Shown: positions 17,523 to 43,796 of the stretch, piece by piece
How the letters are laid out: each line of letters begins with the position of its first letter
Position numbering within the stretch: the stretch's first letter is position 1
From: Candidatus Latescibacterota bacterium
GTDB lineage: Bacteria; Latescibacterota; UBA2968; GCA-2709665
DNA: 64,000 bases
Assembly (NCBI GenBank): GCA_965116875.1
Contig: OZ220733.1
Span: forward strand, 128,001-192,000
Reading direction: 5' to 3'
The notes under the pieces: model-generated
The model's database searches: none
Seen by the model: only the letters and a program-made list of their open reading frames with translations
Told to the model about the DNA's origin: nothing
Made by a program: the position numbers and the translations under genes

Positions 17523-19616
17523 ATGAACAGGACATCGATATTGAGTACTGTCATTCTCCTGGCGGCTGCCTTGTTCGTACAAGCCGCCCGTGCACAGGAT
17601 ACCAATCGCTGGAATCTCCCCGACGGGGCCCTGATGCGTTTGGGCAAAGGAGACGTGCGCGACGTGGTCTGGTCGCCGGACGGAACGCGCCTGGCGGCGG
17701 GAGGCAGCGTCGGCATCTGGCTCTACGATGCCGGGACAGGCGAGGAAATCTCGCTGATCACGGGACATTCGCAGACGATCAACGGAATTGCGTTTTCGCC
17801 CGGCGGTCTGACGCTGGCAAGCGGCAGCCGGGACCATACGGTACGGTTGTGGGACGTGGCCACAGGACAGGGAAAAAGCATCCTCACGGGACATACCGGC
17901 GACGTCGAGGCGGTGGCATTCTCACCGGACGGGACGACGTTGGCAAGCGCCGGTGGTGACTCAACGGTGCGGATGTGGGACCTGTCCACCGGGAAGGAAC
18001 AACATACGCTCATGGGACATGTCGGGGAAGTTGGGTCCGTCGTGTTTTCACCCGATGGTCTGTCGCTGGCAAGCGCCGGAAACGACTCCACGGTGCGGGT
18101 GTGGGACGTGGCCACGGGGCAGGAACAACACACGCTTGCCGGACGTGTCGGAGAGGTTTGGTCGTTCATCGGAATGGTCCGGCCGGTCGCGTTTTCACCC
18201 GACGGTCTGACGCTGGCAAGCGCCGGAAGCGACTCCAGGGTTCGGTTGTGGGACCTGGAATCGGGACGGGTAAAAAGCGCACTCGCGGGGCACGGGTCGA
18301 TCGACTATTCGGTGATGTTTTCTCCTGACGGATCGACCCTGGTAAGCACTGGCGGCTATCGGGACCCAACGGTGCGGTTGTGGGACCTGGACACCGGACT
18401 GGAAAAACACGCCCTGACGGGACACGCGATGTTGGTCAGGTCGGTGACGTTTTCGCCGGATGGGAGGACGCTGTCCACCGCCGATTGGGACAATACGGTG
18501 CGGGTATGGGACGTGGAATCGGGGCAGAATCGAAGTACTCTCACGCTTACCCTCACAGGGCATACCCGACAAGTACATTCGGCGGCGTTTTCGTCGGATG
18601 GGCGTCGGCTGGCAAGCGGAAGTTGGGACTGGACGATGCGGCTGTGGGACGTGGCCGCAGGAAAGGAGCAAGGCATCCTTGAAGGCCATGACAGTGTGGT
18701 CAGGTCGGTGGCGTTTTCGCCGGATGGGAGGACGCTGGCAAGCGGCAGTTACGACTGGACGGTCCGGTTGTGGGACGTGGCCACCGGTCACGAGACAAAC
18801 ACGCTTAAAGGACACACCAGTCGAGTCGGGTCGGTGACATTCTCGCCCGATGGTCTGACGCTGGCAAGCGCCGGCAGTGACAATACGGTGCGGTTGTGGG
18901 ACGTGGCCACCGGTCAGGAAAAGCACGTCCTGACGGGACACGCGGCAAGGGTCTATTCGGTGGCGTTTTCGCCGGATGGCAGAACGCTGGCAAGCAGCAG
19001 TCTTGATGAGACGATACGCATGTGGGACGTGACCAGCGGGCGTCAGAAAAACACGCTCGCAGGTCATTCCCGCTGGATCTATTCGCTGGCGTTTTCACCT
19101 GATGGGACGACGCTCGCAGGGCCCGATGGCGATGGTACGGTGCGGCTGTGGGACGTAGCTACGGGACAGCTCATTCGCACCCACACTACATACAAAGAGG
19201 GTTTCTTGTCTGTGGCGTTTTCACCCGACGGGGCAACGCTCGCGACCGGCAGTCTGTTCAGGACCGTATGGTTGTGGGACATGGCCACCGGACGGGAACT
19301 ACGCACCTTCACGGGACATACCGGTCTGATCAGGTCGGTGGTGCTTTCACCGGATGGAACGACGCTTGTAAGCGGCAGTTACGACGGTACGATTCTGGTG
19401 TGGGATGTCGATTCACGAGCCGCGTTGCAACCCCGTGCCGCCGACTTTGACGGTGACGGGGCCGTTGGTTTTTCAGATTTCTTGCAATTCGTAGCGAATT
19501 TCGGACTGAGCTGGGGAGATGAGGGATATGACGCGCGCTTCGATCTGGACGGCGACGGTACCGTCTCGTACAGCGACTGGACGATCTTCAGACGCAACTA
19601 CGGCCTTGGTTCCTGA
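17523..19616 (+). CDS. Secreted WD40 protein W1 (14 repeats) with C-terminal paired EF-hand/dockerin-like module
   Basis: Signal peptide ..ARA-QD, RWNLPDGALMRLGKG cap, [14 protein letters not shown]...D.TVRLWD repeats, DFDGDGAVGFSD/DLDGDGTVSYSD. Confidence 0.92.
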   Translation: MNRTSILSTVILLAAALFVQAARAQDTNRWNLPDGALMRLGKGDVRDVVWSPDGTRLAAGGSVGIWLYDAGTGEEISLITGHSQTINGIAFSPGGLTLASGSRDHTVRLWDVATGQGKSILTGHTGDVEAVAFSPDGTTLASAGGDSTVRMWDLSTGKEQHTLMGHVGEVGSVVFSPDGLSLASAGNDSTVRVWDVATGQEQHTLAGRVGEVWSFIGMVRPVAFSPDGLTLASAGSDSRVRLWDLESGRVKSALAGHGSIDYSVMFSPDGSTLVSTGGYRDPTVRLWDLDTGLEKHALTGHAMLVRSVTFSPDGRTLSTADWDNTVRVWDVESGQNRSTLTLTLTGHTRQVHSAAFSSDGRRLASGSWDWTMRLWDVAAGKEQGILEGHDSVVRSVAFSPDGRTLASGSYDWTVRLWDVATGHETNTLKGHTSRVGSVTFSPDGLTLASAGSDNTVRLWDVATGQEKHVLTGHAARVYSVAFSPDGRTLASSSLDETIRMWDVTSGRQKNTLAGHSRWIYSLAFSPDGTTLAGPDGDGTVRLWDVATGQLIRTHTTYKEGFLSVAFSPDGATLATGSLFRTVWLWDMATGRELRTFTGHTGLIRSVVLSPDGTTLVSGSYDGTILVWDVDSRAALQPRAADFDGDGAVGFSDFLQFVANFGLSWGDEGYDARFDLDGDGTVSYSDWTIFRRNYGLGS

Positions 19617-20003
19617 AGCAAATACACGGTGTCAGAAACAGGTTGCGTCAGGTCCGCATTGGGGCCGGGAGCCGCTTCCATCGGGCGGGTTCAGGCATGG
19701 GAGTTGAATCCTTGATGGACGCGTGCATTGACTTCGCATCATTCTCCCATTCTTCCCGCGTTCAGAAAGGAGGTGGTATCGGAATCCACGTCGCGAAACG
19801 TTGGACCGCGGTATATGTACGTAAGAAGCGATGCCTCGGGGCAAGTGCTGAACTGAAACGTCTCGCGGCTTGAACGTTCGAGCAACGTCCAACGGCTCTC
19901 TCGGCAAGCAGATCACTCGCTCCGGGTTATTACAGGAGTCACATCAGTTACTGTCTCTTCTTGCGGTCTCATCCGAGTTTATCAGAATCAGGGAGGGTAA
20001 ACC

Positions 20004-41580: not shown

Positions 41581-41744
41581 TGGCAACACGCCGTGTCGGT
41601 GTCCGGTTGCTCCAACTTTCTCCACGAATCCATCGCTCGGTGCAGGTCGTCGACATACTGGAATCAATCACTGTCTTTTCGTGCCATTAAATCCTGGTTC
41701 ATCCCTCGTAGTCAAAGTTTATCATAGTCAGGGAGGGCATTCAG

Positions 41745-43796
41745 ATGAAAAGGTCAACGATTTTGGGCGTCACTCTAGTTTTGACGACTGTCCTGTTTTC
41801 ACACGACAGCCTCGCACAGGATCACACACGAATGGGACTGCCCCAGGGGGCACTAAAGCGGCTGCGCAAAGGAGAATCACGCCTGGTGGCCTGGACGCGG
41901 GACGGCGCGCGACTGGCGGTGGGCGGTACCATTGGCATCTGGGTTTACGATACCGAAACCGGGGACGAGGTTTCTCTGCTCGCGGGTCATAGACGTGAAG
42001 TGGTATCGATGGAGTTTACGCCCGATGGCCTGACGCTTGCGAGCGGCAGTCTTGACCATACGGTGCGTTTGTGGGACGCGGCCACGTGGCAGGAAAAAAG
42101 CACCCTGAAAGGACACACCCGCGGGGTCAATTCGGTAGCATTTTCGCCGGATGGGACCACGCTGGCGAGCGGCAGTCGCGACGGCACGGTGCGGGTGTGG
42201 GACGTGGCCACCGGGCAGGAAATACACGCTCTTACGGGACATACCCGTGATGTCAATTCGGTAGTGTTTTCGCCGGACGGGACAACGCTGGCAAGCGCCA
42301 GCCGGGACGAAACGGTGCGGTTGTGGGACACGGCCACAGGGAATTAGAAAAACACCCTCACCGGACATACGTCGTCTGTCACGTCCGTGGTGTTTTCGCC
42401 GGATGGGAAGACGCTGGCTGGCACCAGTAGTGATCGTACATTGAGATTGTGGGAAGTGTCCTCCGGCGAAGAGAAAGGCGCCGTAACAGAACAAAACTGG
42501 TGGCCCGGATCGGTGGCGTTTTCGCCGGACGGGAAGACTATGGCGAGCGGCGGGTACGACAATATGGTGCGATTGTGGGACGTGGCGACAGGGCTAGTCA
42601 ATCACACTCTCACAGGACATACGGCGACCGTCAGGTCGGTATTGTTTTCGCAGGATGGGATGACCCTGGCCAGCGGAAGTTCGGACAATACGGTGCGGTT
42701 GTGGGACATGACCACCCAAATTGAAAAAAACACCCTAACGGGACATTCGGGGACGATCAGGACGATTGCTTTTTCGCCGGACGGAACATCGCTGGCAAGC
42801 GCCAGTTGGGATCATACGGCGCGTTTGTGGGACGTGGCCACGGGACAGGTAAAGAGCACCCTCACGGGACATTCCGGGTCTACCAGGTCGGTGGCGTTTT
42901 CACCGGATGGGGCGACGCTTGCAAGCGGCAGCTGGGACGGAACTGTGCGGTTGTGGGACGCGGCCACAGGGCAGGCAAGACACACCCTCACAGGACATAC
43001 CCGAGGAGTCGAGTCGGTGGCGTTTTCCCCGGACGGGTCGATGCTCGCAAGCGGCGACGGCGGGATTGGTACGGTGCGGTTGTGGGACGTGGCCTCAGGT
43101 CAGGAAAAAAGCGCCTTGTCACCACATTTCGGTACGGTCTATTCGGTAGCGTTTTCGCCGGATGGAAAGACGTTGGCAAGCGGCAGTTCGGACAATTCAG
43201 TGCGGCTGTGGGATGTCGCCTCGGGGCAGGTGGAAAACACCTTTACAGGACATACACTACATGTCCTTTCTGTCGAGTTCTCGCCGGACGGGACGACGCT
43301 GGCGAGTGCCGGTAAAGACAATACGGTGCGATTGTGGGACGTGGTATCAGGGCAACAAGAGTTCACCCTCGCGGGACATACGGAATGGGTTTACTCCGTG
43401 GTGTTTTCACCGGATGGAACCATGCTGGCCAGCAGCAGTTCGGATGGTACGGTGCGGTTGTGGAACGCGGCCTCGGGGCAGGAAGAGGCCACCTTCACAG
43501 CGCATACGTATTGGGTCCCGTCGGTGGCGTTTTCGCCGGACGGAAGGAAACTGGCCAGCGGAGGCAGCGCGATCCTATTATGGGATATGTCGCCCTTTGT
43601 CGATCCGCAACCCCTTGCTACCGACTTCGACGGCGACGGCGCCGTGGGCTTCCCCGACTTCCTGCAGTTCGCGTCGCAGTTCGGGCAGAGCCGGGACGAC
43701 GCCGGATTTGACGCGCGTTTCGACCTGGACGGCGACGGTGAAGTCGGGTTCAACGATTTTGTGATCTTCGCTCGCAGCTTCGGCAATGGTACGTGA
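41745..43796 (+). pseudogene. Secreted WD40 protein W11 (14 repeats), interrupted by an in-frame TAG
   Basis: TAG at 42345-42347 where paralog W7 has TAC (Tyr); downstream ORF 42387-43796 is in the same frame. Confidence 0.85.

Follow-up and report, generated by a model that had tools for sequence, protein, structure and literature searches.

A tandem array of exported WD40 double propellers with dockerin tails as candidate cargo of a non-cellulosomal cohesin-dockerin system in a Latescibacterota genome

What use does a bacterium have for eleven related copies of one exported WD40 protein, set in a row and all pointing the same way? The question is raised by a 64-kb window of DNA (positions 128,001 to 192,000 of contig OZ220733.1, assembly GCA_965116875.1; numbered here from its first letter) from a Candidatus Latescibacterota bacterium, in which the plus-strand paralogs W01 to W11 follow one another at positions 17523-43796. 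That the eleven genes are co-oriented and uninterrupted by others had been noted in a sequence-only reading of the same DNA and is confirmed here: the spacers between W01 and W11 measure 91-431 nucleotides (nt) and hold no other credible gene. Because the genome encodes 106 open reading frames (ORFs) with the module that closes the array proteins, which we identify as a dockerin, and six proteins that join a cohesin to a sorting domain for type IX secretion (T9SS), the array appears, on sequence grounds, to provide one group of cargo proteins for a large non-cellulosomal cohesin-dockerin system.

Double propellers with a dockerin tail

All eleven copies begin with a lysine- and arginine-rich n-region, a hydrophobic core and an A-x-A motif followed by QD, which together constitute a Sec signal; no lipobox was found in the array proteins. 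A degenerate first blade ends at residue 69 in every copy and is followed by canonical 42-residue WD40 blades, to a total of 14 blades in nine copies and 15 in W05 and W07, and the tail after the last WD measures 69 residues in 11/11. Among the 156 blades delimited over the eleven copies, 109 are exactly 42 residues long, and in these the consensus is carried by His13 (90%), Ser31 (91%), Asp35 (92%) and Trp41 (99%). The Pfam WD40 model (PF00400) scored 455-545 bits over 12-14 stretches in all five copies scanned (5 of 11), so that the 14-15 WD40 repeats behind a signal peptide, as first read from the sequence, are borne out by the Pfam scans and by the eleven N-termini. The identical architecture claimed at the same time holds for signal peptide, blades and tail in 11/11 copies, but not for integrity, as W06 and W11 are broken and 9/11 copies are intact. 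Amino acid identity among the copies is 56-88%, and two groups can be told apart, A (W01, W02, W03, W06, W08, W09 and W10) and B (W04, W05, W07 and W11).

An AlphaFold model of W02, computed from a nine-row alignment with a mean predicted local distance difference test score (pLDDT) of 80.3 and a predicted template modelling score (pTM) of 0.50, contains 56 strands that form 14 four-stranded blades in two confident seven-blade blocks. The sole low-confidence break between the blocks, at residues 334-338, falls on the TLTLTGH linker. Linkers of this LTLTGH/LRLTGH type are present in 7/11 copies, all of group A, and their coincidence with the break in the model agrees with the earlier proposal of a 7+7 arrangement. 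The best match of the model in the PDB is 2YMU, a 14-blade WD40 protein (E 3.4e-64, 49% identity). The first 66 residues match only WD40, and weakly; neither a NACHT domain nor another effector module was found, and a chain made up of signal peptide, 14-15 blades and a 69-residue tail leaves no room for one. A search of a collection of 5.8 billion proteins with the whole protein returned generic bacterial WD40 proteins, 7988 of 8000 candidates reaching E<=1e-30; identity is 36-58% among the 120 matches listed, and the family is not delimited by this search.

The protein behind 2YMU, Npun_R6612 of Nostoc punctiforme, resembles the array proteins in having 14 repeats that form two WD40 domains; the array proteins have, beside their propellers, a signal peptide and a dockerin, and their genes stand in a tandem array. 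A survey of highly repetitive prokaryotic WD40 proteins, 14-repeat proteins included, describes a conserved scaffold with variable hotspots (Hu et al. 2017, PMC5587647), and the words signal peptide, secreted and dockerin are absent from the part of its text that was accessible.

The tail is a type-I dockerin. The three tails scanned (3 of 11) exceed the Pfam Dockerin_1 (PF00404) cut-off of 22.9 bits, with scores of 24.1, 23.4 and 25.1, the matches spanning profile positions 2-53 of 57. All eleven tails contain DFDGDGxVGFxD followed by FLQFA and DLDGDGxVGxxD followed by an IF..SFG segment, that is, two 12-residue calcium loops, each with its following helix. In the W02 model the tail has just two helices (647-655 and 680-690, pLDDT 54-71), which indicates the loop-helix pair of a dockerin rather than the four helices of an EF-hand pair. 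A profile built from the tails aligned to the solved Cel48 dockerin 2y3n_B in one stretch, over positions 10-67 of 69 (E 1.2e-9). The ratio of nonsynonymous to synonymous substitution rates (dN/dS) in the tail lies between 0.04 and 0.34 in 15/15 ortholog pairs, so the module is under purifying selection. Since a dockerin is an anchoring module, the common anchoring tail proposed earlier fits, as far as sequence can tell. Across the copies the first dockerin repeat is nearly invariant, and the second has one form in group A (GSRDLWIFQKSFG) and another in group B (GFNDFVIFARSFG), as in 24285-24491 versus 28996-29202; this split could reflect two cohesin preferences.

The genome-wide system and where its parts may sit

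The genome, a single 5.45-Mb contig that is 97.7% complete, was searched with the tail profile. The 106 dockerin ORFs obtained amount to about 2% of its long open frames; 60 have the module at the C-terminus, and about 26 are WD40 proteins, with at least three WD motifs per ORF. They form eleven clusters of at least three members, and the WD40 array is among the two largest. When 40 of the non-WD40 dockerin ORFs were sampled against Pfam, they comprised four proteases (S8, M10, M8 and M4), seven leucine-rich repeat (LRR) proteins, YWTD and lactonase-type propellers, CARDB, VWA-FGE and Big_2 proteins, four carbohydrate-active proteins (two GH12, one GH113, one heparinase-like) and thirteen with no Pfam family beyond dockerin or EF-hand. 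Two further clusters (2565786-2611366, 12 members; 766051-800288, 9 members; coordinates on contig C1 of the genome) mix LRR, CARDB, YWTD, WD40 and leishmanolysin-type proteins, and each has an internal anchor gene that combines a cohesin with a C-terminal sorting domain.

The putative sockets were found in the same genome. The Pfam Cohesin model (PF00963) matched at seven places, three of them above the cut-off (42.2, 26.2 and 26.0 against 24.1 bits), and tblastn with two cohesin domains yielded six paralogous ORFs, each with one cohesin match; five of them are short, at 283-379 residues, and the sixth reaches 1748 residues. The T9SS type A sorting domain TIGR04183 is present in all six (30.2-38.7 bits against 23), and the four scored as proteins all pass. 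A model of one of the cohesin proteins (pLDDT 87.4, pTM 0.83) matched cohesin or cohesin-like chains in the PDB in all listed cases but one, with E about 1e-7 and a TM-score of about 0.6 at the top ranks. Five of the six genes lie within 15 kb of 2-9 dockerin ORFs, against 0.6 expected from an even spread, and the cohesin anchors are kept in 15/15 genomes searched, from two families. Across ten genomes of the genus, the number of blade-plus-dockerin matches rises with the number of cohesin anchors (Spearman 0.76), which gives no more than a hint, the genomes being non-independent kin and the match counts lower bounds. Throughout the genome TIGR04183 matches 19 ORFs, only one of which also has a dockerin, leaving 105/106 dockerin ORFs without a sorting tail. 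A homologue of the SprA translocon is present (630 bits against a cut-off of 200). Prediction of a complex between the W03 tail (11-row alignment) and a cohesin (29 rows), run without controls, scored 0.30 against a mark of 0.32, a result that speaks neither for binding nor against it.

These parts suggest the following arrangement, to which we give a probability of about 0.5. Each array protein would be exported by Sec as two stable seven-bladed (or seven- and eight-bladed) WD40 propellers, and its dockerin would plug, with calcium, into single-cohesin proteins of the same genome. Because these carriers have a T9SS C-terminal sorting domain, they are expected at the outer surface, and the propellers would in that case hang on the cell as exchangeable binding heads, beside about 95 other dockerin-tagged proteins (LRR proteins, YWTD propellers, proteases and others). 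Their ligands would be macromolecules of the presumed sponge host or others from outside. The export signals in 11/11 copies agree with the earlier description of the proteins as exported, and its term binders would suit such a role. If the parts bind as proposed, they would form a modular, exchangeable surface coat, and this would be a concrete mechanism for presenting to the host those eukaryote-like proteins of sponge symbionts that have so far merely been counted in genomes.

Cohesin-dockerin systems are known mainly as machines that degrade plant cell walls. Here the plug is found in a non-cellulolytic, reportedly sponge-associated bacterium, on cargo dominated by animal-like binding modules (WD40, LRR, YWTD, cadherin/fn3) and proteases, and the sockets are tied to type IX secretion. 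The tails resemble those of cellulosomal type-I pairs such as the Bacteroides cellulosolvens Cel48 dockerin and ScaA cohesin (2Y3N) in the duplicated calcium-loop-plus-helix, and the partner fold is a cohesin. The array genome departs from the cellulosome in its cargo, mostly binding repeats and proteases; in its single-cohesin anchors with a T9SS tail in place of a multi-cohesin scaffoldin with an SLH or sortase anchor; and in belonging to a diderm. With six single-cohesin anchors and 4/40 carbohydrate-active cargo proteins, a cellulosome was rejected.

A parallel outside Firmicutes is 'Ca. Stygibacter' (Cloacimonadota), for which the accessible text of PMC8542988 places dockerin enzymes, by inference, on a scaffoldin with a C-terminal domain (CTD). 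It shares with the array genome proteins that have a signal peptide and a C-terminal dockerin, as well as a cohesin protein with a surface-attachment C-terminal domain; according to the same text, it differs in its enzyme cargo (GH18, GH57, S8 and C25) and in its one scaffoldin of 3,755 residues with tandem cohesins and carbohydrate-binding modules, against six single-cohesin anchors and mostly repeat-protein cargo here. WD40 genes are abundant in Poribacteria, and many of them encode a TIGR04183 tail as well (Kamke et al. 2014, PMC3909097; dockerin and cohesin have no occurrence in the part of the text available). In poribacterial metagenome-assembled genomes (MAGs) we found WD40 proteins that have the same closing blade as the array (..SASYDGTILLWD) followed by a dockerin, there of the DVNxDGxVN type. 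One 990-nt poribacterial record, L165, has a single open frame in which WD40 blades are followed by a dockerin and, after a linker, by a T9SS-type tail motif (..NYPNPFNPETWIPYQL..); its sorting tail is thus in the same chain, whereas in the array genome it is on the separate cohesin proteins. The L165 chain suggests that such proteins are bound for the surface. WD40 is one of the eukaryote-like domains listed in a paper on sponge Latescibacterota, the accessible part of which mentions neither cohesin nor T9SS (PMC12993501). No published description of a WD40-dockerin system was found in the literature searched, most subscription journals being beyond reach.

Several observations weigh against surface display by way of dockerins. 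The Dockerin_1 scores are marginal, and EF-hand models do equally well or better (EF-hand_1, 33.4 bits); the tail profile also matches calmodulin as strongly as it matches a dockerin, but over several gapped stretches. At the level of motifs, therefore, the paired EF-hand tail of the sequence-only reading is incomplete rather than wrong: the EF-hand motifs are there, and the module they belong to is, by the Pfam match, the alignment to 2y3n_B and the two helices, a type-I dockerin. No cohesin gene lies near the array, the nearest being more than 500 kb away. The array proteins have no T9SS tail of their own (W02 was scanned, and none of the 19 matches in the genome falls in the array), so that in cis they do not qualify as T9SS cargo. 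One ORF resembles PorU but falls short of the cut-off for that model, and the GldL and GldM models matched nothing in this genome, nor in any of the control genomes, so that this negative says little. No secretin (PF00263) was found in the 97.7% complete, single-contig genome, whose 106 dockerin ORFs bear Sec signals, and no route across the outer membrane is thus evident.

Some of these points would suit proteins that stay in the periplasm. Such residents would cross the inner membrane only, and their propellers would act there, for instance as TolB-like envelope or chaperone-type platforms, with a calcium-binding tail that binds the cohesin carriers transiently or has another role. The Sec signal and the missing lipobox, T9SS tail and secretin all agree with this, and there is a weak similarity to the NCBIfam TolB-propeller model (103 bits against a cut-off of 343). 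That match, however, is far under the cut-off and reads as generic propeller similarity, and six cohesins with surface-sorting tails, 106 dockerin ORFs and poribacterial relatives that fuse WD40-dockerin to a T9SS-type tail speak against a purely periplasmic life, which we consider unlikely.

Surface display raises the question of how folded cargo that has no sorting tail gets out of a diderm cell in which no secretin was detected. One answer, improbable but attractive, is that the cohesin-plus-sorting-tail proteins are shuttles too, which would carry periplasm-folded dockerin cargo through the type IX translocon in trans, so that one sorting tail would serve a hundred cargoes, the double propellers included. 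Such shuttling would explain why 105/106 dockerin ORFs lack a sorting tail, why 6/19 sorting-tail proteins are little more than a cohesin, and why the genome shows no secretin.

Divergence and maintenance of the predicted binding faces

The most variable blade positions are 15, 16, 18, 34 and 36, with an entropy of 3.1-3.5 bits over the 109 blades. By the strands of the W02 model, together with textbook topology and the accessible text of PMC5587647, they are assigned to the loop between strands d and a or the start of strand a, and to the b-c turn, and would thus lie on the top face. The constant scaffold and variable surface noted at the outset are therefore seen, at these predicted top-face positions, and such a pattern is, by that text, already known as a general feature of prokaryotic WD40 proteins of the highly repetitive kind.

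The same reading had gone further and proposed a diversifying repertoire, in which, as in HET-E and related NWD proteins, repeat shuffling and positive selection would drive recognition of hosts, phages or competitors. Among paralogs, dN at the hot positions exceeds dS of the rest in 41/55 pairs, two ortholog pairs have hot-site dN/dS of 2.43 and 1.55, copy number differs between species, and there are gene-conversion tracts and one blade loss (below), all of which would be expected of such a repertoire. The paralog comparison is circular, however, as these data had already served to pick the hot positions, and dS (0.43-1.0) is near saturation; set against their own dS, the hot sites exceed 1 in 11/46 defined pairs. 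In the first of the two ortholog pairs, the five hot positions take 15/30 changes in labelled blades (Fisher p 0.03, with no correction for the 15 pairs), and the second rests on only 15 hot codons.

Between orthologs the picture is, on average, one of constraint. Pooled over 15 pairs, dN/dS is 0.54 at the hot positions and 0.25 in the rest of the blade; the hot-site value is below 1 in 13/15 pairs, and none of the 42 blade positions exceeds 0.79. A GY94 fit to 43 copies put the ratio at 0.49 in 39 hot codons and at 0.28 in the other 296, the former a weak value in that it depends on separate branch lengths for the hot partition (tree length 47.8 versus 14.1). At the hot sites, orthologs share 420/550 residues (76%, 14 pairs) and paralogs 371/1447 (26%, 36 pairs), compared with 87% and 70% in the rest of the blade. 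These values are most simply read as binding faces that diverged after duplication and have been kept since, with fixed specificities and no running arms race. A separate ligand for each paralog is probable, since the top-face residues differ among paralogs but for the most part stay the same between species.

The history of the genes is in line with this. In a quick maximum-likelihood tree of 44 full-length copies there is no grouping by genome (the nine rows from the array genome need nine changes); the copies fall into ortholog groups instead, and the paralogs hence predate speciation. The array evolves by birth and death: W06/W10 (dS 0.20) and W07/W11 (dS 0.28) are recent duplicates, and in each pair one partner is already a pseudogene. 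Mosaic stretches overlie this pattern. W10 is closest to W02 (93-97%) across about 300 nt and to W06 elsewhere, and the identity of W07 to W11 ranges from 70% to 100% along the gene. W04 and W09 have in common the signal peptide and 405 nt upstream (91%), with bodies that are 63% identical and belong to different groups (24495-24990, 36633-37140); a cassette of promoter plus leader has been exchanged between them. W11 is short of exactly one blade, and the two blades that now adjoin there are joined in register. Recombination thus takes the form of in-register gene conversion among paralogs, plus one blade loss.

This differs from what is familiar from Podospora HET-E and HET-D, cytoplasmic proteins with a NACHT domain whose 42-residue WD40 repeats vary on the top face and recombine with one another. 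The array proteins resemble them in repeat length, top-face variation and repeat recombination; they differ in being exported, in having no NACHT domain, in repeats that are not homogenised and in showing no average nonsynonymous excess. The high internal repeat identity assumed at first, and with it recombination in the manner of HET-E, is contradicted by the blade sequences: within genes, blade DNA identity averages 67.1% with a maximum of 82.5% (n=496 pairs), between genes it is the same, and 75/109 blades have their nearest relative in another paralog, at an equal blade position give or take one. A HET-E-type mechanism was accordingly rejected, there being no NACHT, blades only 67% identical and ortholog hot-site dN/dS of 0.54. 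With unhomogenised blades, paralogs older than the species and kept as ortholog groups, and no room for a NACHT or NB-ARC module, we consider fast diversification quite improbable; the data fit a repertoire of distinct, conserved specificities shaped by birth and death and by gene conversion.

Conservation of the top faces between species would also be expected if the partners were the cell's own. WD40 propellers are typical assembly platforms, and the double propellers could be non-catalytic adaptors that gather exported proteins of the cell, such as proteases and LRR proteins, at the envelope; the S8, M4, M8 and M10 proteases and the many domains without a known partner in the dockerin set would provide clients. 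No co-variation or neighbourhood, however, ties any paralog to a particular partner, and the flanks of the array are metabolic genes, so that such hubs seem to us more doubtful still. The array offers nine natural variants of one stable scaffold with different conserved, predicted binding faces and with orthologs in other species, which makes ligand hunts and binder engineering practical.

The array, its lesions and its relatives

The genes of the array and of its left flank are listed in the table. A ribosome-binding site of the AGGGAGG type lies 8-10 nt upstream of each start, and a 126-nt period runs throughout the array (Tandem Repeats Finder). Promoter and terminator scans of the array found nothing that marks gene boundaries, and an Rfam scan of it found no RNA family.

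Table. Features of the window on the left flank and in the WD40-dockerin array (positions in the window).
Feature	Position	Strand	Remarks
Two heparinase II/III-like ORFs	7889-10324, 12354-14504	+	left flank; kept in all seven relatives
DHDPS-family ORF	14541-15443		left flank; kept in all seven relatives
ORF without Pfam family	15516-16421		left flank; kept in all seven relatives
W01	17523-19616	+	intact; signal peptide, 14 WD40 blades, dockerin tail 19407-19613
W02	20004-22088	+	intact; signal peptide, 14 blades (7+7 in model), dockerin tail 21879-22085; copy modelled
W03	22404-24494	+	intact; signal peptide, 14 blades, dockerin tail 24285-24491
W04 (group B)	24915-26948	+	intact; 14 blades, dockerin tail 26739-26945; 89-91% identity to W09 at the 5' end and in the 405 nt upstream
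W05 (group B)	27040-29205	+	intact; 15 blades, dockerin tail 28996-29202
W06	29574-31666	+	pseudogene, frameshift; otherwise 88% amino acid identity to W10
W07 (group B)	32025-34199	+	intact; 15 blades, dockerin tail 33990-34196
W08	34557-36632	+	intact; TTG start; 14 blades, dockerin tail 36423-36629
W09	37064-39148	+	intact; 14 blades, dockerin tail 38939-39145
W10	39493-41580	+	intact; 14 blades, dockerin tail 41371-41577; nearest to W02 (93-97%) along some 300 nt
W11 (group B)	41745-43796	+	pseudogene, in-frame TAG; 14 blades, one fewer than near-copy W07

The lesion in W06 is one GGTTC too many in (GGTTC)3 at 31185-31199, a 5-nt slippage that gives a gene length of 2093, not a multiple of 3. 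In W11 a TAG stands at 42345-42347, where its near-copy W07 encodes Tyr. The codons for the ..VRLWD motif (GGTTCGGTTGTGGGAC) recur across many blades, and it is in such a stretch that W06 slipped to three GGTTC copies (31185-31204); the pentamer may be a recurrent site of inactivation.

The locus lies between the same flanking genes in 7/7 related genomes examined, all of them congeners, with a SpoU methylase, a GFO/IDH/MocA oxidoreductase, a creatininase and an M81 peptidase on the right. Comparison of copy number and order, which had been suggested as a check, shows the same locus throughout and copy numbers that range from one 322-residue fragment (G014) and two fragments (G009) through six full-length copies (G008 and G012) to eight with additional fragments (G007) and nine (G010). 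In G013 a 92-kb stretch holds seven full-length copies, fragments and two giants of about 1,500 residues. The giants, in G013:C1:4881586-4973262 (L058-L062), are WD40-dockerin ORFs of 1513 and 1527 residues, enough for about four propellers, and some stretches of that region are without WD40 genes.

Misassembly of the array, whether as a collapsed or a wrongly expanded repeat, is unlikely in the extreme: repeats of this kind do break short-read assemblies, and the short-read contigs are fragmentary with many false joints, but the paralogs are just 56-88% identical, the genome is a single contig, and the locus is present in 7/7 related genomes, five of them with at least six full-length copies. 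Of the words sampled, 95% and 83% are present in short-read contigs from two runs of two studies, one of which may be the source sample, and no difference is listed at the W06 and W11 lesions; such contigs cannot show long-range order.

Beyond the immediate relatives, a query made of the last blade and the dockerin, with at most 28 candidates scored per genome, gave matches at E<=1e-20 in 42/168 genomes of the phylum and 7/49 genera. The related records are titled as Candidatus Latescibacterota MAGs, and one as Gemmatimonadota. Elsewhere in the window, a selenocysteine tRNA gene is encoded on the minus strand at 56347-56440 (Rfam tRNA-Sec; 73.4 bits, gathering score 47).

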